In this document: piece by piece, positions 1 through 27,340 of the stretch
How the letters are laid out: each line of letters opens with the position of its first letter
How positions within the stretch are numbered: the stretch's first letter is position 1
From: a virus
Strand: one strand, 5' to 3'
DNA: 27,340 bases
Virus record (IMG/VR): IMGVR_UViG_3300045988_034716
Span: 1-27,340 of that record
Notes under the pieces: model-generated
Told to the model about the DNA's origin: nothing
What the model saw: only the letters and a program-made list of their open reading frames with translations
Databases searched by the model: none
Made by a program: the position numbers and the translations under genes

Positions 1-55
1 AGATAGTGAATCTCCCTGATTGGCGCTGACGCACCGAAGCAGATTGGTGTTCCCT
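1..55. repeat. Terminal direct repeat; exact copy of 27286..27340 (circular-contig overlap or terminal redundancy)
   Basis: Window positions 1-55 (agatagtgaatctccctgattggcgctgacgcaccgaagcagattggtgttccct) are identical to the last 55 nt. The portal reading frame runs without interruption through this junction. Confidence 0.9.
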
Positions 56-1981: not shown

Positions 1982-2454
1982 TCCGTCTTCCCGAGTCCGA
2001 GCGCGTCAATCCACTCCTTGATGCTCGTGTCCTGCTCCTCGCTGATTGCGACGTCCTGTCTGTCTCGCCACAGCTGCGGCTGACGGTTCTTCAGCCAGAA
2101 GATGCAGGCGGTGACGTCCGGCGCAAGCTCCCTCTCGGTCTCCTCTACCCTCTTCACCTGCGGTTGGCCATCGACAATCTCGATGACCTTCTTCGTCTCC
2201 CGCGACTTGCCGCCCATCGCCCGCTGGTACAGCGTTCGCTCTACGTCCATGTCAGCTATGTCGCGGCTCTCGTTTAGGGCGTTCGAAAACGCCTCGTCCT
2301 CCTTGGCCCACTTGTACAGCGTTGACTTCGCTACCCCGAACTCCCTCGCTATCTCCTCGGCAGTTGCGCCCCTCAGCGCCAGACCCCTCGCCCACGGGAT
2401 GTGGTACTTCGGATCGTACTTAGTCGGCCTTCCCGTCTTTGCCATGCGTATCAC
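1978..2454 (-). CDS. terS: Terminase small subunit. The true start is probably the ATG at 2445 (MAKTGRPTKYD...)
   Basis: N-terminal MAKTGRPTKY followed by an HTH-like segment (ATAEEIAREFGVAKSTLYKWAKE), about 155 aa, immediately upstream of TerL with a 4-nt overlap. Confidence 0.7.
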   Translation of the reverse strand: MIRMAKTGRPTKYDPKYHIPWARGLALRGATAEEIAREFGVAKSTLYKWAKEDEAFSNALNESRDIADMDVERTLYQRAMGGKSRETKKVIEIVDGQPQVKRVEETERELAPDVTACIFWLKNRQPQLWRDRQDVAISEEQDTSIKEWIDALGLGKTE

Positions 2455-2668
2455 CCATCATGTTCTCGAATATCTCCCACGGGCTGCTGATCTCCCCGGA
2501 CTTCATCTTGCGGTCTATGAGCGCCTTCACGCCCCTCGCCGTCGTCTCAGGTATCGCGGCCCTTCCGAACAGCTTCATGGTTGGAGTATACGCCCTGCCG
2601 TCGTACTCCCCGAACTCGCGCAGCGCCGCCCTCGCCATGGGCCGCGCTGCGGCCACGGCGTTCTTCAC
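2420..2668 (-). CDS. Hypothetical protein, 82 aa, non-ATG start. The frame is open up to about 2745
   Basis: Composition is balanced rather than Arg-rich. Its 3-prime end overlaps the TerS start. The exact start is uncertain (GTG at 2668 or ATG at 2641). Confidence 0.4.
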   Translation of the reverse strand: MKNAVAAARPMARAALREFGEYDGRAYTPTMKLFGRAAIPETTARGVKALIDRKMKSGEISSPWEIFENMMGDTHGKDGKAD

Positions 2669-2787
2669 GTCGCCGTGCTTCTTCGTTGCCTGAAGCGCCT
2701 TGACGAACGGCTCGAGCTCCTCCTCAGCAAGGACGGCCCCTTATCACGCTCATGGTCTCCATACCGGCGACGTTGCAGTGCTCTGGC

Positions 2788-3180
2788 CTAACCTCCTCCA
2801 TCGAGACGCCTCCACCCTTCCATCCCAAGAGCCTTCGAGTACTTCGTAGGCTCGTCGAGCAGGATGTACTCCCAGTGGCCTGCCTCTATCGTCGGCATCC
2901 CGTATCTGTAGCACGGCTGCTTGCTCTCGACCCACCTGAAGTGGAGCATGTTCTGGTGCGCGAGACCGTGGCATCCAGACGTGTTCCCTGAGCCGCACAG
3001 CGTTATTGTCGGCTTCTTGAGTTCCACGCCGTTGCGGTACATCTTGCCGGCGCTCCTGCGCACCACGTGATGCTGGTTCAGCGGCCACGTCGCGCCGCAT
3101 ACGGCGCACCTGCACATCTTCACTGACGGCTTCCCCATCATCGGCTGAAGCTCAAGCGCGAGCGTCGTCACCTTAGCCAC
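2788..3180 (-). CDS. HNH endonuclease, packaging-associated
   Basis: Cys/His HNH motif: CAVCG...NQHHVV...CHGLAH. It lies just upstream of terS/terL, as in cos-type siphoviruses. Confidence 0.85.
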   Translation of the reverse strand: MAKVTTLALELQPMMGKPSVKMCRCAVCGATWPLNQHHVVRRSAGKMYRNGVELKKPTITLCGSGNTSGCHGLAHQNMLHFRWVESKQPCYRYGMPTIEAGHWEYILLDEPTKYSKALGMEGWRRLDGGG

Positions 3181-3663: not shown

Positions 3664-3849
3664 CTACAACAGCTCCTGCGGCTTCTTTCGCAGCTCCTCG
3701 CACATCCGCTTGAATATGTCGGTACGAGGCTCCCTGCGCCCGTTGACGATGTTGCTCATCTGCCCGTACGAGCACCCGACCTTCCGCGCCAGCTCGTTCT
3801 GCGACATATCGCGCTCTGCCAGCGCGTCCCTCAGTGCCTGCGTGTTCAT
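3664..3849 (-). CDS. XRE-family HTH transcriptional regulator (Cro/CI-like), 61 aa
   Basis: HTH signature: MSQNELARKVGCSYGQMSNIVNGRREP. RBS AGGAGAAAtga precedes ATG. Confidence 0.8.
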   Translation of the reverse strand: MNTQALRDALAERDMSQNELARKVGCSYGQMSNIVNGRREPRTDIFKRMCEELRKKPQELL

Positions 3850-3895
3850 TCATTTCTCCTTCGTCCTTCCTGCCTTGGTGTTTACTGATGTGAAC

Positions 3896-3924
3896 ATCAT
3901 ATAACATCCGCTCACGTTTGTAAA
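3896..3924 (-). promoter_or_regulatory. Sigma70-like promoter TTTACA-17-TATGAT, upstream of the XRE gene
   Basis: On the minus strand: TTTACAaacgtgagcggatgttaTATGAT. It sits in a locally AT-rich 70-bp island between the DnaC-like gene and the XRE gene. It has the same -10 hexamer as P1-P3. Confidence 0.5.
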
Positions 3925-3926
3925 TA

Positions 3927-6814: not shown

Positions 6815-7214
6815 CGTCCTGCTCGGACTTCATGAGGCTGTCGATGGCCCTCTTCTTCTCGGACTCGTACACCGAACGAAGCTCTGCTTTGCACAGAAAC
6901 ACGAATTGCTCGTAGCTCATGAAGCTCGGCACCTTCTCAATCCTGCGCTTGAGCCAGTCCTCGAAACTCTCGGCAACGACTGCCCCGCCCTTGCGCTCTA
7001 CCCGCACGTCCTTCCAGTAATCGAGCGAGTCTGCGGCGAGCTTCTCGCGGCCAACCTGTAGGATTCGTGCTTTGATGCCCTCGAACGGGTCTTTCTCGGC
7101 TCTCACTGTGGCCGATTCGACCATGCATGCCCTCATCTTCGCGTTCTCGGCCTTAAGACGTGATATGCGGTCGTAAGCCTCAAGCACGCCCATCACCATG
7201 TCGTTGCGTTCCAT
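6804..7214 (-). CDS. Hypothetical protein, 137 aa, first gene of the P1 unit. Start re-assigned to MERNDMV
   Basis: The track ORF start at 7298 lies inside promoter P1. ATG 7212-7214 is preceded by the conserved leader GAAAGGCAGGAcagg that also precedes the first gene downstream of P2 and P3. Confidence 0.55.
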   Translation of the reverse strand: MERNDMVMGVLEAYDRISRLKAENAKMRACMVESATVRAEKDPFEGIKARILQVGREKLAADSLDYWKDVRVERKGGAVVAESFEDWLKRRIEKVPSFMSYEQFVFLCKAELRSVYESEKKRAIDSLMKSEQDDEE

Positions 7215-7278
7215 CCTGTCCTGCCTTTCCGCCCTTCCGGGCTTCTCGTTTCCGGGGATTCCGTTTCCCCTTGACTTA

Positions 7279-7307
7279 ATCATAGCACAATCGTTCATCG
7301 TTGTGAA
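7279..7307 (-). promoter_or_regulatory. Promoter P1: TTCACA-17-TGcTATGAT (minus strand), conserved module copy 1
   Basis: On the minus strand: TTCACAacgatgaacgattgtgcTATGAT. Near-identical copies occur at 8979..9007 and 25194..25222. Confidence 0.65.
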
Positions 7308-7316
7308 TAGTAATTA

Positions 7317-7345
7317 CGAGAAAACGGCGGGCTTGCAACCCGCCT
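7317..7345 (-). terminator. Rho-independent terminator: GGCGGG ttgcaag CCCGCC then GTTTTCTCG
   Basis: A hairpin followed by a U-tract on the minus strand, directly after the stop of the 7352..7603 gene and directly before P1. Confidence 0.6.
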
Positions 7346-8735: not shown

Positions 8736-8930
8736 CTAAGACTCCATCCTCATGTTGTGAGACACCTCGAACGCGGCAAGCTCGTAAGCCTCTGACTTGC
8801 AGCGAAGGTACATCTCCTCGGTCGTGTCTCCGTTCTTCTCTGCACGGTAGGCATCGTTCGCGAACTTGTCTGAAAGCCTCGCGAAGTAGTCCGCCATCTC
8901 GTCTACCGTCCTGTATCTGCCGCTCTCCAT
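8736..8930 (-). CDS. Hypothetical protein, 65 aa, first gene of the P2 unit. Start re-assigned to MESGRYR
   Basis: ATG preceded by the conserved leader GAAAGGCAGGAagac. The track ORF start at 9053 lies upstream of P2 and of the lysis terminator. Confidence 0.5.
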   Translation of the reverse strand: MESGRYRTVDEMADYFARLSDKFANDAYRAEKNGDTTEEMYLRCKSEAYELAAFEVSHNMRMES

Positions 8931-8978
8931 GTCTTCCTGCCTTTCTTCTATTGGCGAACCTTTTTCTCCTATAAGCAC

Positions 8979-9007
8979 ATCATAGCATAAGCGTTCATCT
9001 TTGTGAA
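8979..9007 (-). promoter_or_regulatory. Promoter P2: TTCACA-17-TGcTATGAT, conserved module copy 2
   Basis: On the minus strand: TTCACAaagatgaacgcttatgcTATGAT. Confidence 0.65.
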
Positions 9008-9014
9008 TAGTGTA

Positions 9015-9050
9015 CGCAAAAATATGGGGGGGCGCTTTCACACCCCCCCA
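9015..9050 (-). terminator. Rho-independent terminator: G7 / C7 stem then ATATTTTTG
   Basis: On the minus strand: gggggggtgtgaaagcgccccccc followed by atatttttgcg. It is 7 nt downstream of the endolysin stop. Confidence 0.6.
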
Positions 9051-9056
9051 CACTTG

Positions 9057-10223
9057 CTAGTTCGTTGCCTTGAGAACGCCGTCCTCACCGGCTTGCAGCA
9101 CTATGGCACCGGTCAGCGCCGCTCCATCGTCGCCGAGAGCGTACATCTTGCCTCCGACCTGCGCGATGCGGCCACGGACTGCACGCCCTTCCGAGTCTGC
9201 CACGTGCACCTTGCCGTCAGACGCATATGCGGCGTTACGTACGAGCCTGCAAGACGGCGCGTCTGCGAAGCAGTACCGCTCCCCGTCGATGACATGCACG
9301 CCCGTGTAGAGAGAGCCCCATGGGTCTCCGCTCGTCTGCGAAGCGAAGTACTTGTCTCCGGCAGCGTCGGTAATCCAACCGGAGTCGCAAGCCCCGAACC
9401 TGCCGTCGTGCCTGTCGTGGAGCCGGTACCACTTGCCCGCATCGTCGCAGAACCAGCCCCATTGCACCCAACCAGACGCATCGAAGTGGTACCACTCTCC
9501 GTCGATGAGCTCCCAGTCGTTCGTCGTGTACGAGCCATCTGCGTGCCGGTACCACTGCTTGTCTGCGTCGGACTCGTCGTAGACCCAACCGGCAGGGCCG
9601 GACGACGGAGACGCGCCTGCGATTGCGAGCCACCCTTCACGGGTAAGCTGCGCATAGTTTCTGTCAGTAAGCTCGCCGCTAGACGTGTACTGCCACAGAG
9701 TCCACGTAGCCCATGCTCCGGTGCCATATCTGAACGTCGGCATCTCCCAAGAGTTGCGGTTGTCCGGATAACCGGCAATCCACAGCGCACAATCGCTTGC
9801 GCAGCTCGCAGCCTGCCCGACCGCCGAAGCCTGGATGTACACCATGCACCAGATGCCCGTAAGCTCGTGGATGCGGTCAACGAACCTGCGGCACCATGTG
9901 GTGCTTCCCCACGAAGAGTTCTGCGTTCTCTCCCAGTCGAGGCACGGGATTCCCTCGCCGAAATACCCCTTGCAGTTGTTGTAAAAAAAGTTCGCCTCTG
10001 CAACTGGGTCGTTTCCTCCTGCGTAGTGGTAGAAACCCCATAGCTTGCCGTCGCTCTTCGCACGCTGGATTGCCGGGTCGCAGTACTTGTTCACGTACCC
10101 TGTCCCCTGCGTTGCCTTTGCAATCACGAAGTCAGACTCGCCGTATGCTGTCTCGGTGTTCTGCTTGCCGAATCTTCCGTTCGACCACCCGTCATGCGAC
10201 GATACGTCTATTCCCCTAAGCAT
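9057..10223 (-). CDS. Endolysin: GH25 muramidase domain plus C-terminal cell-wall-binding (choline-binding-like) repeats. Start at MLRGIDVSSHDG
   Basis: GIDVSSHDGW...DFVIAKATQGTGYVNKY is typical of GH25. The C-terminal half carries repeated GW/WY-rich modules (GWVYDESDADKQWYRH..., WELIDGEWYHFDASGW..., GKWYRL...). RBS GGAGGctcga precedes ATG. Confidence 0.9.
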   Translation of the reverse strand: MLRGIDVSSHDGWSNGRFGKQNTETAYGESDFVIAKATQGTGYVNKYCDPAIQRAKSDGKLWGFYHYAGGNDPVAEANFFYNNCKGYFGEGIPCLDWERTQNSSWGSTTWCRRFVDRIHELTGIWCMVYIQASAVGQAASCASDCALWIAGYPDNRNSWEMPTFRYGTGAWATWTLWQYTSSGELTDRNYAQLTREGWLAIAGASPSSGPAGWVYDESDADKQWYRHADGSYTTNDWELIDGEWYHFDASGWVQWGWFCDDAGKWYRLHDRHDGRFGACDSGWITDAAGDKYFASQTSGDPWGSLYTGVHVIDGERYCFADAPSCRLVRNAAYASDGKVHVADSEGRAVRGRIAQVGGKMYALGDDGAALTGAIVLQAGEDGVLKATN

Positions 10224-10944: not shown

Positions 10945-13383
10945 CTACGCACCAATCGGCCACGACACGATTCCTCCCGTTGCCTGACCACTTCCACTGC
11001 CGAACGAATAGAACCACAACTCTCCTGTGCCGTCTGTCCACATCTGTGCGGTGTTGTTCGACTGCCTCGTCGTCAGCGGAATGTAGACACCGGTATGCAG
11101 CCTGTACCTGTCAGGAAGCGCGAAGTTCGGAACCTTCCATCCTCCCGTGCCAGGAATATCGTACAAACCACTCACGAGAATCCAGACGCACCCAGACCTC
11201 ACGCACCACCAGATGTCTCCGTAGCCGTTGCCGCGGTATACATCCATCCAGCCCTTCGTCTCAATCTGGTCGTACAGCCTGTCTATGCTCTCTGTCCCCT
11301 CTCCCGTGCCGATATACGGAGTTGATATGTACGTCTTGAACCCTGATTTCGACTCGTCGTAAACAACGCCGAGTCCTTGGTCTGAACCACTCGGCCCTAC
11401 GATGAACGCTATCGACCCCTTTTTAGACGTGTTCTCAACAACAATATCAGGGTCTACCGTGTCCGTGCCGTTGGTCATCGTCAATACCGCGTTGCCTTTG
11501 GCATTGACAATAGTCAGGTCGTTTCCCTGCTTTCCTACGACTATCGACTTGGAGCCTAGAATCATCGAGTCGTTGGCATTGAGCGCCAACCCGTCTCCGG
11601 TCGCTATCGCATAAGCCCCAGTGCTTGCGAGCATGGCGCTGTTGTTGCCCTTCACGCCCACCTGGTCTCCAAACAGCGCGAGCATGGAGCCTAGAGCCGA
11701 AGTCACGGCTCCAATCTCCCCGGCACCGGAACACAGATTGATTACGGATTGTGACGAGTTCTTGCCAAGCTCAATCAGCGACGTTGCAAACGACGCAACC
11801 ACGGTCGTACCCTGCCTAATCTTGATGCCATCTCCGGTGAGCAGGATGTTCGCACCAGTTGCAGCGTTCTGCTTGCTCGTCGCTACGTGGGCACCCTCCG
11901 AGTCGGCCCAGAAGTACCATTGCGTTTTCGCGGCGACCTCGTTGGCTGAGTTGATTGCCTTCGCGAGAACCGGCTGCGTGTACGTCGTGCTCCCGTTCGT
12001 CCACGTCACCTTCGAGCGCGTCCAGATGTAGTGGCTCTCTGCCCATGCTGGCTGCGATGTCCCCCACGAGCCTCCTGACTGCGCAGTCGGACTCGTTGAC
12101 AGGTAGTACTCCTCGACGATTGCGGAGACGCCTACGCCGGTTTCCCCCTTGGCTCCGGGGTCTCCTGTGTCTCCCTTCGCACCGGGCGCTCCGACCTTTC
12201 CGCCGACACTATAGCTCGTCGTCGTCGAATTGTCTGTATACGTCGTCACCGTCCTCGTCCACAGGTATTGCGTCGTCGTCGGCGCTAGGACGGAACTCTG
12301 CCACGTTCCTGTCGGAACGGTCGTTCCGCTTGTTGACAGCTGGTACGAGACGGCGGTTGACCTAACGCCCTTGCCGTCGCTGCCGGGGTCTCCCTTGTCC
12401 CCCTTGCTTCCGTCCTTTCCCTGCAACGCGACCGTGTACGACTTCTTGCCATCGCTGTACGATGTCCTCGTCCATACGTACATACCGGCACCGGCAGTCG
12501 GAATCTGCGACAGCCATGCGCCTGTTGGCGGAGTAGTTCCAGATGCCGACACCTGATACTCGATTGCCGAAACAGACACCGACGCGCCATCACTACCGTC
12601 CTTGCCGGGGTCTCCCTTAGCTCCTTGGATGCAAGTAGGCTCCGAATAGCTCTCGGCTCCGGAGCCGTCCACGGACTTCGTTCTCTGCCATATGTACTTC
12701 CCCTGAGTCCACGCTGGCGAGTCTGTAGACCACCCGCTCGTTGGAGCTGTCGTGCTCGTGTCCCCGAGCGCGTACTCGACATCGACCGACGCGACAAGCG
12801 TCTGCGCGAGCGCCTTTGCCTCGTTTGCAGCTTTCTGCGCAGCCTCAACAGCCGCTTCGTCCGCCGCAGCAGTCACGGTGACTCTCACCGAATCCGACGC
12901 CTCGGAGACGTTGTGCCTGTCCGTTCCGTCCTCTGCGCAGGCGTCGTCCTCCGCCGTAGCCCACACGGCGTACGTCTTGCCAACGGTCAGGCGGTTCGAC
13001 GACACCGAACCCTCTGCGTAAAGCTCGCCGAGAACCTGCTCGCCCTCTCCGTCGGTCTTGGCCTTCACAACCAGCTTTGCGAAATCGTCTGGGATTCCGC
13101 CCTCAAGCTCGCCAGACCAGTACGCGACGAGCACCCCAGACGACGATGCCGCCGACACTCCAAGAGGCTTTCCCGGAGGCGTCGTGTCGCCGACGTGCGT
13201 CGCCATGCTCCTGCCGTTCCCGTTCTGCACGCCGAGGATTGAGCGCGTCCCGTCTGCGTTCGGCACAGAGATTGTGCCGCTCTGGCGTGTCGTTGCCTCC
13301 CTCGCGGACTGTGCTGCCGATGCGGCGACGTTCGCCATCTTCTCCATCGGCGACATCATGCCGCCGAGCTTCACGTGTCTCAT
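10945..13383 (-). CDS. Tail fiber / receptor-binding protein with collagen-like Gly-X-Y stretches and tandem domains, 812 aa. Start re-assigned to MRHVKLGG
   Basis: GAKGDPGKDGSDG, GKDGSKGDKGDPGSDGKG and GAPGAKGDTGDPGAKGETG each precede a roughly 55-aa module (...Y.LS.SGTT.PTG.W.S......YLWTRT...). There is a coiled-coil AAADEAAVEAAQKAANEAKALAQ. RBS GGGAGG. The TAATG overlap with the upstream gene's stop fixes the start. The track's extra 121 N-terminal residues are Arg-rich and overlap the upstream gene. Confidence 0.65.
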   Translation of the reverse strand: MRHVKLGGMMSPMEKMANVAASAAQSAREATTRQSGTISVPNADGTRSILGVQNGNGRSMATHVGDTTPPGKPLGVSAASSSGVLVAYWSGELEGGIPDDFAKLVVKAKTDGEGEQVLGELYAEGSVSSNRLTVGKTYAVWATAEDDACAEDGTDRHNVSEASDSVRVTVTAAADEAAVEAAQKAANEAKALAQTLVASVDVEYALGDTSTTAPTSGWSTDSPAWTQGKYIWQRTKSVDGSGAESYSEPTCIQGAKGDPGKDGSDGASVSVSAIEYQVSASGTTPPTGAWLSQIPTAGAGMYVWTRTSYSDGKKSYTVALQGKDGSKGDKGDPGSDGKGVRSTAVSYQLSTSGTTVPTGTWQSSVLAPTTTQYLWTRTVTTYTDNSTTTSYSVGGKVGAPGAKGDTGDPGAKGETGVGVSAIVEEYYLSTSPTAQSGGSWGTSQPAWAESHYIWTRSKVTWTNGSTTYTQPVLAKAINSANEVAAKTQWYFWADSEGAHVATSKQNAATGANILLTGDGIKIRQGTTVVASFATSLIELGKNSSQSVINLCSGAGEIGAVTSALGSMLALFGDQVGVKGNNSAMLASTGAYAIATGDGLALNANDSMILGSKSIVVGKQGNDLTIVNAKGNAVLTMTNGTDTVDPDIVVENTSKKGSIAFIVGPSGSDQGLGVVYDESKSGFKTYISTPYIGTGEGTESIDRLYDQIETKGWMDVYRGNGYGDIWWCVRSGCVWILVSGLYDIPGTGGWKVPNFALPDRYRLHTGVYIPLTTRQSNNTAQMWTDGTGELWFYSFGSGSGQATGGIVSWPIGA

Positions 13384-14564
13384 TACCAAACCTCCCACGG
13401 GTCGAAAATCGGGTCGAACGTGAGCTGAACCTTGTCTGTCATGTCGCCCTTCATCTCCATAAGACGCAGCTTGTACACGCCGTCGGGCAGCGTCGGATAG
13501 CCGTCTATCGCTACATCGACCTCCTGGCCCGGCCACAGGATTCCGGGCGTCACGTTGTTGCCCGCGTCGTTGACGAACGTCCTTCCGGTTATCTGCACGA
13601 GCGGCCTCTTCAACGATTCGAGCACTGCGTTCGAATGCCTTCTCACGAGGTCTTCTGTACCCCAGTCCGAACTTCCTTTCTGAGCCTCGACGAGCGGCCA
13701 CGGGTCGTTCCTCTGGCACAGCGTCATGTCCTGAGCGAGATAGCATAGCGTTCCCTCGTCCTGCCCCGAGCCTGTCCCGTACACGCGCATCGTAGGCGCT
13801 CCGTGGGCGACCTTGATTCCCTCTATCGTGCCTCCGCCCTTGAACCAGGTCAGTGTTGGCACGACACCTGACTGCCCGAGGTACGGATCTGAGTCCGAGC
13901 CAGCCTCGAACGTCCAGCTGACTCTGTTGCCGTCAACATTCGGCCTGAACTGCATGTCGGGGCCGTTCTCAACGTTCGCAATCGCCGTCAGCAGCTTCTT
14001 CGCTGAGTTGTTCCCCACGTTGTAGCCGTAGTACGTCCTCTGCGAGGAACCCCCCTCTCCAAGGTACTTCCAATCTATGGGCAGGTAGCCGCCCTGCTTC
14101 TTTTCCGTTGCCATGACGCCAATCTCGCACGCTATCGCCCTCAGAGACAGGCCGCTGAAGAAAATCGTGTCGCTCGTCGTTGACCCGTATCCCTTCCCGA
14201 ACCTGCCCTCGGTGACGATGAGCCTGTTGTCTAGAAAGTCCATCGGGGACAGCAGGTCGAACGACGTGTCGAGGTACGAGTCTGTTCTGAGGCCGATTAT
14301 ACCGGCAACGACCGGCGCTCCGTCCCAGAGCAGCACGAGTCCCCTACGGTAAGGAGCCAGGAATGCGTTCCTGCCCTCCTGGCTCTCGATTGGAAGCGCC
14401 TCCCACGGTACGGTCAGACCAGATGCGTCACCCTCGCCAGTTCCCTTGTCCCTCGTTGTCGTGAGCGAGCACGAGGATACGGTCAGCGTCCACGACAGGT
14501 TCGGGATGTCGATTGGCGCGTCTATGACGCCTGTCATCGTGTCGAACACGTAGCACTCCCACAT
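13383..14564 (-). CDS. Tail tip / baseplate hub protein (Tal-like, N-terminal Prophage_tail-like domain), 393 aa
   Basis: Position (after the Dit-like gene, before the fiber), size and composition. The family assignment is from memory, not from a search. Confidence 0.45.
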   Translation of the reverse strand: MWECYVFDTMTGVIDAPIDIPNLSWTLTVSSCSLTTTRDKGTGEGDASGLTVPWEALPIESQEGRNAFLAPYRRGLVLLWDGAPVVAGIIGLRTDSYLDTSFDLLSPMDFLDNRLIVTEGRFGKGYGSTTSDTIFFSGLSLRAIACEIGVMATEKKQGGYLPIDWKYLGEGGSSQRTYYGYNVGNNSAKKLLTAIANVENGPDMQFRPNVDGNRVSWTFEAGSDSDPYLGQSGVVPTLTWFKGGGTIEGIKVAHGAPTMRVYGTGSGQDEGTLCYLAQDMTLCQRNDPWPLVEAQKGSSDWGTEDLVRRHSNAVLESLKRPLVQITGRTFVNDAGNNVTPGILWPGQEVDVAIDGYPTLPDGVYKLRLMEMKGDMTDKVQLTFDPIFDPWEVW

Positions 14565-18736: not shown

Positions 18737-19288
18737 CTAGGGCTTAACCTTCCCGAACGCCTCTTTCTGCCATGCGATTATACTCTCCGCCTCTGCGGTC
18801 TTCTTCTTCGGAAGAGTCCATGCGTCCCTCGCCTTCGCCATGCGCTGCTCGTACGATTCCTTCGAGCCTTTGCTCCATGTGCGGTACGCCATCGCCTGCG
18901 ACATCACCGTGTCGCTCGGCAGCGAGCGGAACAGCGCGAGGAACCGGTGCCAGTGCATCTCGAGCTCTGGGTCTGTGAGGTCTATGCCATACGCCTGCTG
19001 GAACGCGCCTACGACGTACTCGCCGTCCTCCACGAGGTCGTAAGCCCTCGCAGTCGAGCCGGAGCCTCCGTGCGGCGTGCTGCTCTCGTTCCTAGCGAAC
19101 GCCATGGCGACCGGCACCCACGAGTCTCCTTTCGGCACCTTGCCGTCAAATATGGCCGTCTCGGCCACCTGGCTCACCTCAAGCGACTCAAGCCATGCAA
19201 TCCAAATTCTGAAGTCCGTCCGTATACGGAAAGTCTCCCCGTCAACCTCCAAGGCTGAGGGGAGACCACGGTACCGCAGGTCAATCAT
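18737..19288 (-). CDS. Tail assembly chaperone-like protein (second of a pair), 183 aa
   Basis: It lies between the gpG-like gene and the TMP. Its ATG overlaps the upstream stop (ATGA). The gene is in the -1 frame relative to the upstream gene, but I found no slippery heptamer. Confidence 0.4.
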   Translation of the reverse strand: MIDLRYRGLPSALEVDGETFRIRTDFRIWIAWLESLEVSQVAETAIFDGKVPKGDSWVPVAMAFARNESSTPHGGSGSTARAYDLVEDGEYVVGAFQQAYGIDLTDPELEMHWHRFLALFRSLPSDTVMSQAMAYRTWSKGSKESYEQRMAKARDAWTLPKKKTAEAESIIAWQKEAFGKVKP

Positions 19289-19671
19289 CTCTGCGCCATG
19301 CGGAACACTTGGCGGTTCGGCTTCTTCGTGATGCTTGCGACGCTTGATGCCGCGTCGAGCATGGGCTTCATCTGCTCGATTTGAGCGTTCGCCCCGGACA
19401 TCTGAGCTTCGAGCACGGGCTTTGCGTACGACGTGTTCAGCTCGTTGTACAGGACTGACAGCTCTACGAGGTCAACGTCCTCCATTCGCTTTCCGTCGAG
19501 ACGCGCGTCCACGTACTCCTTCGGCAGAGCCTTCTTAACGAACTCGTACTCGGCCTTGAATCGCTCCGTGCTGCCCTGTGCTGCGGACACCTTGTCCATC
19601 TCCGCACTGAGCTTCAACGTCATCTTCGGAAGCTCGAATGCCTGTCCCTGCGAATCGGTGTACTCGACCAT
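19285..19671 (-). CDS. Tail assembly chaperone (gpG-like), 128 aa. Start at MVEYTDSQG
   Basis: An acidic protein of about 130 aa directly after the major tail protein. RBS GAGAGGCAGG. Confidence 0.5.
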   Translation of the reverse strand: MVEYTDSQGQAFELPKMTLKLSAEMDKVSAAQGSTERFKAEYEFVKKALPKEYVDARLDGKRMEDVDLVELSVLYNELNTSYAKPVLEAQMSGANAQIEQMKPMLDAASSVASITKKPNRQVFRMAQR

Positions 19672-19686
19672 TTCAAACCTGCCTCT

Positions 19687-19736
19687 CAAACGAAAGATTC
19701 CCGCGAGGCTCATGCCCCACGGGAACCATTCTACCA
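19687..19736 (-). promoter_or_regulatory. Stem-loop plus U-tract after the major tail protein gene. An extended -10-like TGgTAGAAT lies just upstream
   Basis: On the minus strand: TGgTAGAAT, then TTCCCG..(16 nt)..CGGGAA, then TCTTTCGTTTG. This is a candidate attenuator or internal promoter within the late operon. Confidence 0.3.
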
Positions 19737-19753
19737 CGCCATGTACCGGGCAA

Positions 19754-20236
19754 CTAGCCTGCCGTGAACGTCACGGTGTCCGTGCCTACTCCTGTGACGG
19801 TGCCGTTGATTGGGTCTCCGTTCAGCGCCAGCTTGAACGAGACGTTGCCGTCCACGGTGTTCAGCGTGTCTCCGGTGACGGTTGCCTCATTCCACACCTG
19901 CGCGACAGTCGGCTTTCCGGTCTCAATGTCGGGTCGGACAATCATGACTGGCGCCTTGCAGTCGGCACCGACAGGATAGCCGTTCAGGAACTTGTCCATG
20001 AACTTGTACAGCGGGTTCGTGTTGTCGAGCACGATTTCCTGCGGAAGCTCGGGCTGGTAGCCGGTGACGACGGTCGTGTCGTTCTTGCTGTTGATGTAGC
20101 TCTTGGTGTCGGTCTGCGGGTTGTAGCTCAACTCGAACTGCGTTGACAGGTCGATGGGCACCCACTTGTACGTTCCCGGCTCGGCACCCTTGGTCGTGTC
20201 GATGAACGGGATGAACAGGTTGCGCGTCAGCTGCAT
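19754..20236 (-). CDS. Major tail protein, 160 aa. Start at MQLTRN
   Basis: Position before the chaperone pair and TMP. Size and Thr/Gly-rich C-terminus. RBS GGAGAG 9 nt upstream. The upstream gene ends ...ESV-TAA immediately before. Confidence 0.6.
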   Translation of the reverse strand: MQLTRNLFIPFIDTTKGAEPGTYKWVPIDLSTQFELSYNPQTDTKSYINSKNDTTVVTGYQPELPQEIVLDNTNPLYKFMDKFLNGYPVGADCKAPVMIVRPDIETGKPTVAQVWNEATVTGDTLNTVDGNVSFKLALNGDPINGTVTGVGTDTVTFTAG

Positions 20237-20237
20237 T

Positions 20238-20681
20238 TTACACACTCTCCTTCTCCCAGTAGGTAATGGCAGCTTGGAACTGGTATCGTGCCAGCTGCAC
20301 GTCCTGATAGGCCGCTGCGAGCGCTGGGACGTTCTGCAACGGCTCTATGGCACGTATTGTACACCCTTCTCCGAAGTCGGGCACGTTGCCCTCGCCGAAC
20401 TGGCGTGCCACCCAGTCAAGCCACTTCTCGCCGAACCCCATTGCCTCGGCGTTCGCCGTGTCGAACCCGTCAGACCAGTCTGCGACCATCACGAGCGCGA
20501 ACGTGTACCTTCGCTCGGCCGTCCCGTCGATGAACTCGCGCATCTTCGCGTCGTTGTACACGACGTTGACCGCCCTCTCGTCTGCCTTCATGTCCACGGC
20601 GTTCAGCTTGATGTACTTCCCGATGCCGTCGTAGGTCTTCAGCCACCTCACGACCGCGTCCGTCTTGCCTGATACCTTCAT
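20238..20681 (-). CDS. Head-tail joining / tail completion protein (minor capsid family), 147 aa
   Basis: Position between the connector genes and the major tail protein. RBS ACGGAGGcagcga. Confidence 0.4.
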   Translation of the reverse strand: MKVSGKTDAVVRWLKTYDGIGKYIKLNAVDMKADERAVNVVYNDAKMREFIDGTAERRYTFALVMVADWSDGFDTANAEAMGFGEKWLDWVARQFGEGNVPDFGEGCTIRAIEPLQNVPALAAAYQDVQLARYQFQAAITYWEKESV

Positions 20682-23055: not shown

Positions 23056-23682
23056 TTACTGCTGGTCTTCCAGCAACTTGTTTACCTCGCTCATGTGCTT
23101 TCGGATGTCATCGACGGACATGCCCTTCAGGTCTTCGAGCGACTGGATGGGAGCGTTGCCGCTTCCTCCGCCGTCGTTCGCACCTGGCATCTTCTTCGGG
23201 TCGCGCTGTGGGTTCGCCCAGATGCCGTCCGCGTCCTCCGTCACCGATGCCAGCACGTCGGCCAGCTTCATGTCGGGGTTCGCCTTCGACTTCTCGTAGG
23301 CTGCGGTCTTGATTGCCTTCGCCACGATGTAGTTCGCGAACTTCTTGTCGCCAAGCTCCTTCTGGAACTTCTTCTCGAACTCCGCCTGCGCTGCGGTCTC
23401 CGCGTCCTTCGCCTTGCGCTCCTCGTCGGCATTCTTGTACTCCTGAAGCTGCTCTTGCATCTTCTTGTACTCCTCGGCCTTCTTCGGGTCTGCGCTCTGC
23501 GCCGCCTCAAGAGCCTCGTTGGCCTTCGCGAGCTGCGCTTCGAGGTCTGCCACCTTCTGCGTCTTCGCGTCGGTCTCCGCCTTGGTGCGGTAGTTCTCCA
23601 ACGTCGCCTTCTCGATTGCCTTCAGCTTCTCGTCGTCAAGCTCGACGCCGTTCGCCTTAAGGATGTCCTTGATGTTGTCCAT
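23056..23682 (-). CDS. Scaffolding protein, 208 aa. Start at MDNIKDILK
   Basis: Highly charged, coiled-coil, Lys/Glu/Ala-rich. It lies directly upstream of the capsid gene. RBS GGACGGAGagtgca. Confidence 0.65.
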   Translation of the reverse strand: MDNIKDILKANGVELDDEKLKAIEKATLENYRTKAETDAKTQKVADLEAQLAKANEALEAAQSADPKKAEEYKKMQEQLQEYKNADEERKAKDAETAAQAEFEKKFQKELGDKKFANYIVAKAIKTAAYEKSKANPDMKLADVLASVTEDADGIWANPQRDPKKMPGANDGGGSGNAPIQSLEDLKGMSVDDIRKHMSEVNKLLEDQQ

Positions 23683-23772
23683 TGCACTCTCCGTCCTAGG
23701 ATGTTGTTGAACCGCACTCCATGCGGTGGGGACGGTCGCACTCAAGCGTGCGCCGCTATGAACGATTGTACG

Positions 23773-23801
23773 ACAAAAAGAAGCCCGCGACTAGGCGGGC
23801 T
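23773..23801 (-). terminator. Rho-independent terminator: AGCCCGC ctagtc GCGGGCT then TCTTTTTGTCG
   Basis: On the minus strand, downstream of the 23857..24228 gene. It ends the P3 unit. Confidence 0.6.
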
Positions 23802-23856: not shown

Positions 23857-24228
23857 CTATGCCCCGTCGATGCCGAGAATCCTCGCGTCAGCCACATCGT
23901 CCTCTACCTGTCCGTACGGCTTCCCTGACATCTTCGCGAGCCTCTCTATGGCTCTCTCGTAGCGGTCGTAGTCCTCGCTCTCGTAGAATCGGTTGGCGAC
24001 CATCAGGCCGCGCTCGTACTTCGACATGCCCTCGCAGTCTCTGTCAACGAGGTCGTAGTCCATAATTTCCGCATCGCTCAGCGGCTCATCGTAGTACACC
24101 CTTCCCCATACGTTCCTGCCGAAATCAGGGTCGAGGAACAGACCGTCGTACATGATGACCTTGCATCCGTCCTTCACCGGGTAGCACCCGATTGACGGCG
24201 GTCTCAGCTTGCATCCGTAGCAGTGCAT
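23857..24228 (-). CDS. Hypothetical protein with an N-terminal Cys cluster (MHCYGCK..C..C), 123 aa
   Basis: RBS AGGAGGcgcagtg precedes ATG. Translationally coupled to the upstream gene by a TGATG overlap. Confidence 0.55.
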   Translation of the reverse strand: MHCYGCKLRPPSIGCYPVKDGCKVIMYDGLFLDPDFGRNVWGRVYYDEPLSDAEIMDYDLVDRDCEGMSKYERGLMVANRFYESEDYDRYERAIERLAKMSGKPYGQVEDDVADARILGIDGA

Positions 24229-24506
24229 CACTGCGCCTCCTTGTACTCGTACTCGAACTCCTCGGTGTCCCCGTTCGAGTAGACCGCCTTTCGTAGCAGG
24301 CTCCCAATCTTGTAGTCATCCTCGAACGTGACCCTGATTCGCTCGCCGTTCACGTACTTCCTGAACACGATTCCAGACGCCTTCTTGCGCATCTGGTTCG
24401 GCGTGTAGAAGCTCCTTACCGGCTTCTCGCCCTTGCCGTTGTGCCAGCAGACGACCCTCTTGCACGCGTCCAGGCCGTCGAGGTCATCGCATCCGTATCC
24501 CATCAT
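24228..24506 (-). CDS. Hypothetical protein, 92 aa. Start at MMGYGCDDLDGLDACKRVVCWHNG
   Basis: ATGATG overlaps the TGA of the upstream 48-codon gene. The track's 144-aa version has an Arg-rich artefactual N-terminus. Confidence 0.5.
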   Translation of the reverse strand: MMGYGCDDLDGLDACKRVVCWHNGKGEKPVRSFYTPNQMRKKASGIVFRKYVNGERIRVTFEDDYKIGSLLRKAVYSNGDTEEFEYEYKEAQ

Positions 24507-24658: not shown

Positions 24659-24865
24659 TCACATCATCGTATCGTCGTTGACGGTTGCAGCTTCCCTAAT
24701 CGCGTACGGTTCGTTGCCAGCACAGGCTACAGCCCTGCACAGCTTCCACTGCGTTACACCGCCGTTCATCGCGGTTGACATTGCCTGCATCAGCGCTGCC
24801 GTGTCGTTCACTGCCTGTATCGTCTTTTCGAACTTTCCTTCGACGTAGAACCCGTATCCGCTCAT
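24659..24865 (-). CDS. Hypothetical protein, 68 aa. Start at MSGYGFYVEGK
   Basis: ATG preceded by GGAAAGGCAGGAAGc, a fourth copy of the conserved SD-region sequence. Confidence 0.45.
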   Translation of the reverse strand: MSGYGFYVEGKFEKTIQAVNDTAALMQAMSTAMNGGVTQWKLCRAVACAGNEPYAIREAATVNDDTMM

Positions 24866-24916
24866 GCTTCCTGCCTTTCCTGTCGATTCCGTCAAAGCCG
24901 CTGTGGCTCAACGCTT

Positions 24917-25151
24917 CCTATGCAACGTATGCCACGTACCTTTTGTTCTTGGTGTCCCTCCTGAAGCAAACGGCCGCCTCTCCGCAGTCCGTATCTACCA
25001 CGAGATGCCTTTCGTTCATGACTGACACCTTCATGCCCCTTTCCACCATCTGCCGGTAGAGGACTTCCACAAGCTCGGCGACCCTTGCTCCGCTGCTGGT
25101 GTTCTCTGCGAACTCCTTTGCGAACTCGATTGCGTCGTTCTTGGTTTACAT
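24917..25151 (-). pseudogene. First ORF of the P3 unit. ATG at the conserved position, then an in-frame TAA as codon 2, then 76 open codons (TKNDAIEFAKEF...KRYVAYVA)
   Basis: The leader GAAAGGCAGGAC-ATG aligns the second ATG (25149-25151) with the start codons downstream of P1 and P2. Codon 2 is TAA where those copies have GAA/GAG. The downstream frame is open to TAG at 24917. Confidence 0.4.
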
Positions 25152-25193
25152 CATGTCCTGCCTTTCTTGTGGTTGTTGTTATTTGTTGATGTA

Positions 25194-25222
25194 ATCATAG
25201 CATATGTGTTCACCTGTGTGAA
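25194..25222 (-). promoter_or_regulatory. Promoter P3: TTCACA-17-TGcTATGAT, conserved module copy 3
   Basis: On the minus strand: TTCACAcaggtgaacacatatgcTATGAT. Confidence 0.65.
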
Positions 25223-25231
25223 TGGTTTACT

Positions 25232-25262
25232 CAAGAAAAAGCGGGGATTTTTTCTCCCCGCC
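25232..25262 (-). terminator. Rho-independent terminator: GCGGGGA gaaaaaa TCCCCGC then TTTTTCTTG
   Basis: On the minus strand, downstream of the 25278..25496 gene and immediately upstream of P3. Confidence 0.65.
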
Positions 25263-27285: not shown

Positions 27286-27340
27286 AGATAGTGAATCTCC
27301 CTGATTGGCGCTGACGCACCGAAGCAGATTGGTGTTCCCT
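27286..27340. repeat. Terminal direct repeat; exact copy of 1..55
   Basis: 55/55 identity with the window start. Confidence 0.9.

Follow-up and report, generated by a model that had tools for sequence, protein, structure and literature searches.

The repeated regulatory elements described here lie in a 27,340-nt stretch of viral DNA, IMG/VR record IMGVR_UViG_3300045988_034716, which is referred to throughout as the window. They comprise four predicted promoters (P1–P4), three predicted intrinsic terminators (T1–T3) that stand ahead of P1–P3, a palindrome that overlies the core promoters, and a short start-associated motif, AAGGCAGGA. All window elements and genes reported below lie on the minus strand. 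The window itself represents the complete, circular genome (27.3 kb) of a siphovirus from an uncultured lineage. Its ends share an exact 55-bp overlap (1..55 and 27286..27340) and the portal open reading frame (ORF) continues across the junction, which indicates a complete circular assembly of 27,285 bp. The GC content is 60% and all plausible genes are on the minus strand.

The genes run from portal and minor head protein through a 72-aa ORF to the T3-P3 junction, which is followed by five small ORFs, one of the five being DarA_C-like. Next come the scaffold, major capsid, tail, tape measure, Dit, fibre and holin genes, then a GH25/choline-binding endolysin, the T2-P2 junction, a 64-aa gene, Erf and SSB. 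The T1-P1 junction leads into a 136-aa gene, a PD-(D/E)XK exonuclease, a DnaD-like initiator and a DnaC-like loader; P4 follows, and after it a gene for a 61-aa XRE protein, small ORFs, an HNH-like gene, a TerS-like gene and TerL, which brings the order back to the portal gene. No integrase, sigma factor or RNA polymerase was found among the window ORFs scanned, which were all but a few small ones. A megablast search with 3 kb of the window against 50,697 phage records gave no match, and the best cultured-phage matches to the major capsid protein were only 42–46% identical, so there is no annotated relative and no cultured phage is close. We infer a Firmicute host because of the endolysin type, the DnaD and DnaC genes, GGAGG ribosome-binding sites and a TRTG motif in the promoters.

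Predicted promoters, terminators and transcription units

A sequence-only reading of the window had described a 29-bp promoter core that occurs three times, with identical hexamers, an extended TGn −10 and a 17-bp spacer. This description was accurate: the core TTCACA-N14-TGC-TATGAT is present without mismatches at 7279..7307 (P1), 8979..9007 (P2) and 25194..25222 (P3). The fourth, related promoter that the same reading placed ahead of the XRE gene also exists, at 3896..3924 (P4), with two mismatches and without the TG (TTTACA...TATGAT). These four matches compare with 0.01 expected, and none of 100 shuffles gave four. A generic sigma-70 scan of the whole genome ranked the same four sites top, each with a score of 10/12 and a 17-bp spacer. 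TGC stands directly 5' of TATGAT in P1–P3, whereas P4 reads TTA-TATGAT at this point and so has no extended −10. Within the window, TGNTATGAT is confined to the three strong promoter copies.

P1 and its palindrome span 7279..7308, with the −35 hexamer TTCACA at 7302..7307, a 17-bp spacer that includes TGC at 7285..7287, and the −10 hexamer TATGAT at 7279..7284; the 16-bp palindrome ATTCACaacgATGAAC (7293..7308) overlaps the −35. P2 (TTCACA-17-TGC-TATGAT, 8979..9008), which lies ahead of the 64-aa gene, Erf and SSB, carries the palindrome ATTCACaaagATGAAC at 8993..9008, and P3 (25194..25223) has the best palindrome of the set, ATTCACacagGTGAAC, at 25208..25223. P4 (TTTACA-17-TATGAT, 3896..3925) lacks the TG and has a weak copy, ATTTACaaacGTGAGC, at 3910..3925.

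T1 (7319..7344) lies 3' of the SSB gene and consists of a stem-loop at 7326..7344 (GGCGGGTTGCAAGCCCGCC) with a U-tract (−14.3 kcal/mol). T2 (9016..9052), 3' of the endolysin gene, combines a 13-bp G/C stem at 9023..9052 with a U-tract (−26.1 kcal/mol, z −5.4). T3 (25232..25262), 3' of the 72-aa ORF behind the minor head gene, also has a U-tract (−15.5 kcal/mol) and is identical in the relative L108. The distance from U-tract to −35 is about 10–11 bp at all three junctions, close to the 7 to 10 bp that the sequence-only reading had given between hairpin with U-tract and core. No terminator precedes P4. Among relatives the terminator stems are wholly different in sequence and yet still base-pair; at T2, the stems of the window and relatives read GGGGGGGTG, GGGGCTGC and GGAGG. 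We are highly confident in the identification of the promoters and terminators.

One further hairpin with a U-rich tail (23782..23801; −13.7 kcal/mol, z −3.8) marks the 3' end of the accessory cassette that begins at P3; it stands 5' of the scaffold gene and has no promoter behind it. The gap of about 110 nt between this hairpin and the scaffold gene (23670..23780) contains the inverted repeats GCGCAC..GTGCG and ACCGCA..TGCGGT, is nearly identical in the relative L016 and matched no Rfam family. Elsewhere, a 14-pair hairpin with a T-rich tail (19696..19727) follows a 163-aa ORF (19754..20245) and overlaps the GTG start of the ORF at 19737..19285; it may be an internal attenuator after a tail gene.

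As the genome is circular and transcribed from one strand, its three terminator–promoter junctions would delimit three transcription units, with one transcript ending and the next beginning at each junction. The unit from P3 to T2 would contain accessory genes followed by the head, tail and lysis genes, that from P2 to T1 the 64-aa gene, Erf and SSB, and that from P1 to T3 the replication genes, XRE, terminase, portal and minor head genes. P4 would act within this last unit as an internal booster ahead of XRE.

The P1 leader (7215..7278) contains hairpin 1 at 7254..7270, hairpin 2 (GCCC-GGAA-GGGC) at 7231..7242 and AAGGCAGGA at 7219..7227, ahead of an ATG at 7214. Hairpin 1 is built from GGGGA/TCCCC in the window versus GGAAAAG/CTTTTCC in L003, from a clade with 49% GC, while hairpin 2 and AAGGCAGGA are invariant in seven sequences. 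The segment GCCCGGAAGGGCGGAAAGGCAGGACA of this leader is identical between the window and the 49% GC clade, and in the group closest to the window just loop bases vary. A search of the whole window against Rfam (E≤1) gave nothing relevant, so the leaders belong to no known RNA family. The possibility of CsrA-type GGA sites was considered and rejected, as relatives do not keep the GGA of the hairpin-2 loop in their corresponding leaders.

The palindrome, the XRE protein and the start-associated motif

The operator-like palindrome that the sequence-only reading had noticed at the −35 is real. Its 16-bp consensus, RTTCAY-N4-RTRAAY, covers −36..−21 of P1–P3, with half-site centres 10 bp apart, and the pattern TTYAY-N4-RTRAA has four matches in the genome against 0.07 expected, all of them in core promoters (P1–P3 and P4). 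The fourth is a second palindrome at P4, GTTCACatcaGTAAAC (3880..3895), which was missed by that reading; it lies directly 3' of the −10, at about −6..+10, over the expected start of the XRE transcript. L003-5 and L108 keep this second palindrome; in L001, L026 and L107 it is degenerate. The C of TTCACA is unchanged in 22 of 22 distinct sites of the P1–P3 type and the central N4 varies freely; a G at the position of this C would restore the consensus TTGACA and break the palindrome. Across 28 distinct sites the right half-site (core positions 10-15) reads ATGAAC, GTAAAC or GTGAAC and never ATAAAC, a pattern that suggests a requirement for at least one G.

The candidate binder of the palindrome is the 61-aa XRE/Cro-type helix-turn-helix (HTH) protein (3664..3849), which is a bare HTH_3 domain (8e-11). 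Among 5.8 billion proteins its family comprises nine clusters, all at least 80% identical, and helix 3, SYGQMSNIVNG, is kept in all nine database clusters of the window type; no intermediate homologues were found in the same search. The best match in the PDB was 8tac_A ('DBP48', E 6e-5), so that there is no close solved homologue.

The motif AAGGCAGGA has five copies in the window, all on the coding strand (0.30 expected). The sequence-only reading had reported the same purine-rich leader after each core, and the motif is indeed present downstream of all four promoters, but one of the five copies has no promoter. This fifth copy (24869..24877) precedes ATG 24865 of a 68-aa ORF (motif and start together, 24863..24877). 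At P2 the motif (8935..8943) precedes the ATG at 8930 of the 64-aa gene (together 8928..8943), and at P4 it lies within the XRE leader (3868..3876), 18 nt before the ATG. Here it is not the ribosome-binding site, as XRE has its own, GAAGGAG. The distances from −10 to motif are 51, 35, 29 and 19 nt, and those from −10 to ATG 64, 48 and 39 nt, so that the leader position 50 to 70 nt downstream given earlier fits P1 only, the others being shorter. In the window and relatives combined, about 26 of 32 distinct copies stand 0–6 nt, mostly 3–4 nt, before the ATG of a small ORF, and in relatives the motif also fronts internal genes that have no promoter. The same genes (MNDKK.., METKNYRT.., MNAKEII..) are found behind differing promoters and leaders or internally, depending on the genome; the first gene behind P2 in the window is the METKNYRT homologue, and the rearrangement junction lies at the AAGGCAGGA motif. 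The sequence-only reading had treated terminator, promoter and leader as a single module. This view does not hold, since the three parts are separable: P4 lacks a terminator, no promoter follows the hairpin at 23782..23801, and AAGGCAGGA also occurs elsewhere.

We therefore describe AAGGCAGGA separately from the promoters. It would be a portable translation-initiation motif, made up of a Shine–Dalgarno-like (SD-like) GAAAGG and a conserved CAGGA, 3–4 nt before ATG, and would label the opening gene of every unit together with many of the small accessory genes. The 3' end of Firmicute 16S rRNA, CCUUUC, is complementary to GAAAGG; such pairing would not explain the invariant CAGGA.

Recognition of these leaders changes several gene starts. 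The longer ORFs listed for the window begin inside a promoter or upstream of a terminator, whereas relatives keep the ATG behind AAGGCAGGA, and the proposals to move the starts at 7298 to 7214 and at 9053 to 8930 were therefore right. The restart proposed for the first ORF after P3 is less straightforward. ATG 25154 fits the gene family, but the window reads ATG ATG TAA at codons 25154..25146 behind the motif at 25156..25164 (together 25146..25164), and with this in-frame TAA the gene cannot simply be re-started. The family, which includes P0010-12 and L108, has 77–78 aa and begins M(M)E(T/A)RNDAIEF; the TAA replaces GAA of the relatives, L108 reading AAAGGCAGGAcacgATGGAAACC where the window reads AAAGGCAGGAcATGATGTAAACC, and the frame beyond it is open for 75 further codons, to 24918. 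On this comparison the change from GAA to TAA is a nonsense mutation or a sequencing error. Recoding of the stop codon was rejected, as 6 of the 36 predicted genes terminate in TAA and the codon is GAA in relatives. The first gene after P3 in L014 and L015 (MLNQSQ...) was also rejected as a homologue of the interrupted ORF (BLASTP E 2.4). A start remote from the cassettes also appears to need revision: a 393-aa ORF (13383..14564) overlaps the listed ATG (13746) of the 933-aa fibre-like ORF (10945..13746) by about 360 nt, and the fibre gene probably starts further downstream.

Conservation and exchange among relatives

Relatives were retrieved with the promoter pattern and with four proteins, namely Erf, the minor head protein, the exonuclease and XRE. 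One group, close to the window, is at about 59–61% GC (L001, L002, L026, L107, L108), and a second group, with Erf 69% identical in amino acids, is at 49–50% GC (L003-5, L014, L015). In both of them the cassette occupies the same places as in the window, in the form of a hairpin with T-tract, promoter, leader, AAGGCAGGA and ATG, with the promoter consensus (A)CTA-TTCACA-N4-T(G/A)AAC-..-T(G/A)TG(C/T)-TAT(G/A)AT. In P1–P3 and the relatives, −35 and −10 each score 5/6 and T(G/A)TG(C/T) abuts the −10. Hexamers, TRTG, terminators and palindrome are kept in both groups. P4 is kept in L001, L003-5, L026, L107 and L108. Nucleotide identity between the window and L004 is 71–78% in the cassettes and 64–78% in the flanking genes.

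A sister clade (L006-L010, L028, L031, L056; 45–47% GC, Erf 55% identical), several members of which come from human oral metagenomes, has four syntenic repeats, located ahead of the Erf unit and behind SSB and the HNH-like gene. In L007 they lie at 9627, 11140, 15657 and 16904, and they are also present in L028, L031 and L056. These repeats share with those of the window only the hexamers (TTGACA-17-TATAGT), the spacing and the position, whereas their inverted repeat, TTGTTGTTGACAACnAGCAACA, differs. Of all the evidence, this argues most strongly for the repeats being promoters, and it indicates that the additional conserved bases form a separate, lineage-specific signal. The leader hairpins of this clade show compensatory change (GGAGTT/AACTCC versus GGGGTT/AACCCC). 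Its XRE gene, which abuts the DnaC-like gene, encodes a syntenic 61-aa protein that is 31–35% identical to that of the window and has a different helix 3, DRTTVFRLQ(K/N)G. More distant clades that share the exonuclease (L038-L051) had no repeated promoter cassette and no XRE homologue.

The sequence-only reading had named XRE as the obvious candidate to bind the promoter sites. This proposal gains support, within the two clades compared, from a helix 3 that is invariant where the palindrome is kept and different in the sister clade, and the additional palindrome at the start site of the XRE promoter adds to it. On these sequence comparisons we lean towards the P1–P4 palindrome being an XRE operator, with XRE as the best candidate binder.

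The cassettes are not all fixed in place. L016, with a minor head protein 92% identical to that of the window, joins window position ~25463 to ~23853 (junction at L016 780..900). About 1.6 kb is missing, comprising most of the 72-aa ORF, T3, P3 and the accessory ORFs, and the minor head gene runs straight into the hairpin that precedes the scaffold gene; the hairpin itself is kept. L014, L015 and L108 have the P3 cassette with its DarA_C-like gene, so L016 probably carries a deletion and the cassette is probably ancestral. The GC content of the cassette is 0.566 against 0.601 for the genome. Its last ORF (23857..24231) has a DarA_C domain ('defence against restriction'; Pfam, 4e-10), common to L014, L015 and L108, and may be a packaged anti-restriction protein because it lies between the minor head and scaffold genes.

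A second variable site follows the HNH-like gene, where L001, L003-5 and L107 have one or two extra cassettes with accessory genes and the window has only the remnant of a DUF3310-like gene. The remnant (~2730..2800, VRPEHCNVAGMETMSVIRG) appears to run on, by way of a +1 shift near 2737-2741, into an 82-aa ORF (2420..2668); L001 and L107 have an intact DUF3310 gene at this site, followed by a further terminator–promoter cassette that is absent from the window. Extra cassettes in L107 (12413..17649) and L106 (5985..6785) carry genes for dUTPase, an S-adenosylmethionine-synthetase-like N-domain, DAM-like/GNAT-phage-like, DUF488 and ParB_N-like proteins, in what looks like a variable accessory, possibly counter-defence, region. 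By these comparisons P1, P2 and P4 are core, and P3 and the extra cassettes are variable. The earlier claim that the cassettes partition the genome into operons stands for the three predicted units, but the partition is not rigid, as P3 is not fixed and is absent from the closest relative, L016.

Interpretation and comparison with known systems

The finding is real, statistically secure and conserved, and it represents an ordinary, known kind of phage regulation. We consider it probable that the repeats are host sigma-A promoters with an XRE operator, placed after intrinsic terminators and accompanied by an independent start motif. Host sigma-A (sigma-70 family) RNA polymerase would start transcription at the four near-identical promoters, P1–P3 would use the Gram-positive TRTG '−16' extended −10, and the palindrome would be the operator of a dimer of the 61-aa XRE/Cro-type protein. 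The position of the operator over the −35 or +1 of a near-consensus promoter argues for repression, and the copy in the promoter of XRE itself for negative autoregulation; XRE would thus turn down all transcription units and its own expression. In a more far-reaching version, which we regard as doubtful, the single 61-aa XRE would control all units, the structural-gene operon and its own gene among them, as a minimal whole-genome switch that acts through one palindrome (at the −35 of three promoters and the +1 of its own), a motif similar to the start-associated sequence (SAS) of mycobacteriophages would give class-specific translation and the cassettes would be swapped. The cassette would then be a physical unit for exchange of accessory (anti-defence) genes across hosts of widely differing GC, and some factor from host or phage would recognize AAGGCAGGA.

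Several observations weigh against sigma-A promoters with an XRE operator. Only two clades connect XRE with the palindrome, and one of them, the L007 clade, has diverged in all proteins and has an XRE gene without its own promoter. In L107 the half-sites are degenerate (GCTCAC-N4-GCAAAC at P4, ATGAGC at P2) and the XRE helix is unchanged. The pattern used to collect sites fixed some positions, and the information content of the conservation table is therefore partly circular. Equal repression of all promoters by XRE would leave the separation of early from late expression unexplained. Finally, the host is a presumed Firmicute, pointed to by the endolysin type, the DnaD-/DnaC-like genes, the ribosome-binding sites and the TRTG motif.

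An alternative that we think unlikely is that these are constitutive, host-type promoters and terminators without a dedicated regulator, the extra bases having persisted through common descent and homogenization by recombination. Copies within the genome are nearly identical over 33 bp, cassettes and genes are visibly shuffled among positions in relatives, the half-sites are degenerate in some relatives, and the phage encodes Erf and a PD-(D/E)XK exonuclease that could promote homogenization. However, the conservation is position-specific between clades that are 10% apart in GC, with the half-sites and the C fixed and the N4 varying; the P4 palindrome lies elsewhere, at +1, and P4 is not a duplicate of P1–P3; and the sister clade has exchanged the palindrome and kept the hexamers.

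The palindrome may instead be bound by a host factor, possibly a dimer of Rex or CRP/FNR type, coupling phage transcription to host physiology. TTCAC and GTGAA are half-sites of Rex- and CRP-family operators, and some relatives vary the half-sites though XRE is unchanged. This explanation is nevertheless very unlikely, as the order here is TTCAC-N4-GTGAA and that of Rex and CRP sites GTGAA-N-TTCAC, the same palindrome persists in phages at 49% and 60% GC, whose hosts probably differ, and palindrome and phage XRE change together in the sister clade. A scan of genome contigs from 185,579 species also found the promoter-plus-palindrome pattern only twice, in unrelated low-GC contigs of metagenome-assembled genomes, which does not exceed chance and points to no host. 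The repeats are partly palindromic and lie at mosaic junctions, and might therefore be sites that act at the DNA level (origin iterons, packaging signals or recombination sites) and are merely promoter-like. This is highly improbable given that every copy is intergenic, points the same way as the genes and falls between a terminator and a start codon 39–64 nt further on, that only sigma-A hexamers, 17-bp spacing and position are common to both clades, and that the copies are dispersed over the genome and not clustered like iterons.

Under the preferred reading of host sigma-A promoters with an XRE operator, the analysis provides a complete predicted transcription map, with three operons, four promoters and one candidate regulator, for an uncultured siphovirus lineage of ~27 kb from gut and oral sources, and corrects three gene starts. 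The set of promoter, operator and terminator is kept in phages of 49% and 60% GC and, if active, could serve as a portable expression cassette. No new kind of mechanism is shown. Of most interest are the CAGGA part of AAGGCAGGA and the sharing of one promoter/operator type by early and late genes.

Each of these elements has counterparts in known systems. The sigma-A promoters of Bacillus subtilis include extended −10 promoters with the Gram-positive '−16' TRTG element. The window promoters resemble sigma-70/sigma-A extended −10 promoters in hexamers near TTGACA/TATAAT, the 17-bp spacer and TGn, and appear to depart from the sigma-A consensus in the fixed, non-consensus C of TTCACA and a conserved ACTA just upstream. 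In the lambdoid phages lambda, 434 and P22, the small HTH proteins Cro and CI bind as dimers to short palindromes over core promoters, including their own. Common to both systems are a small HTH_3 protein and a 6-4-6 palindrome, with half-site centres 10 bp apart, that overlaps the −35 or +1 and recurs in the promoter of the protein itself. The lambdoid operators are at two divergent early promoters only, whereas here one predicted operator type is present in every promoter of the genome, including the one ahead of the structural genes, without tandem triple operators. Unlike the lambdoid phages, the window has no CI partner, integrase or divergent transcription among the ORFs scanned.

Repetition of one candidate repressor-site type across all transcription units is reminiscent of the stoperators of Cluster A mycobacteriophages, where many copies of one repressor site are spread across the genome (PMC3203893). 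Stoperators are asymmetric 13-bp sites, mostly in transcribed regions, that block elongation, whereas the sites here are palindromic and in core promoters. The P3 cassette partly resembles the morons of the lambdoid phages HK97/HK022, in which a promoter–gene–terminator unit is inserted in a late operon (reviewed in PMC3594210). It lies between the minor head and scaffold genes, has its own promoter, a 3' hairpin and accessory genes, and is absent from the closest relative, L016. It differs from a moron in that its promoter is of the phage's standard type and not foreign, its GC content is only slightly lower, it is probably ancestral, being shared with more distant relatives, and no lysogeny is evident; its 3' hairpin is also present in L016.

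The closest parallel to AAGGCAGGA is the SAS of Cluster K mycobacteriophages, with the consensus GGGATAGGAGCCC (Pope et al. 2011, PMC3203893). Both are short, asymmetric and in one orientation, a few nucleotides before ATG (3–7 for SAS, mostly 3–4 here), and both have an SD-like core together with bases that are unable to pair with 16S rRNA. Both are associated with non-structural or accessory genes and are kept across subclades ahead of unrelated genes. The two differ in sequence and in probable host phylum, the 17-bp inverted repeat of the extended SAS (ESAS) type is not found here, and one copy of AAGGCAGGA, that at P4, is 18 nt from the ATG. Because the consensus differs, AAGGCAGGA is an analogue of SAS and not a member. 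With it, motifs of this kind have a second example, phylogenetically remote from the one in Cluster K.

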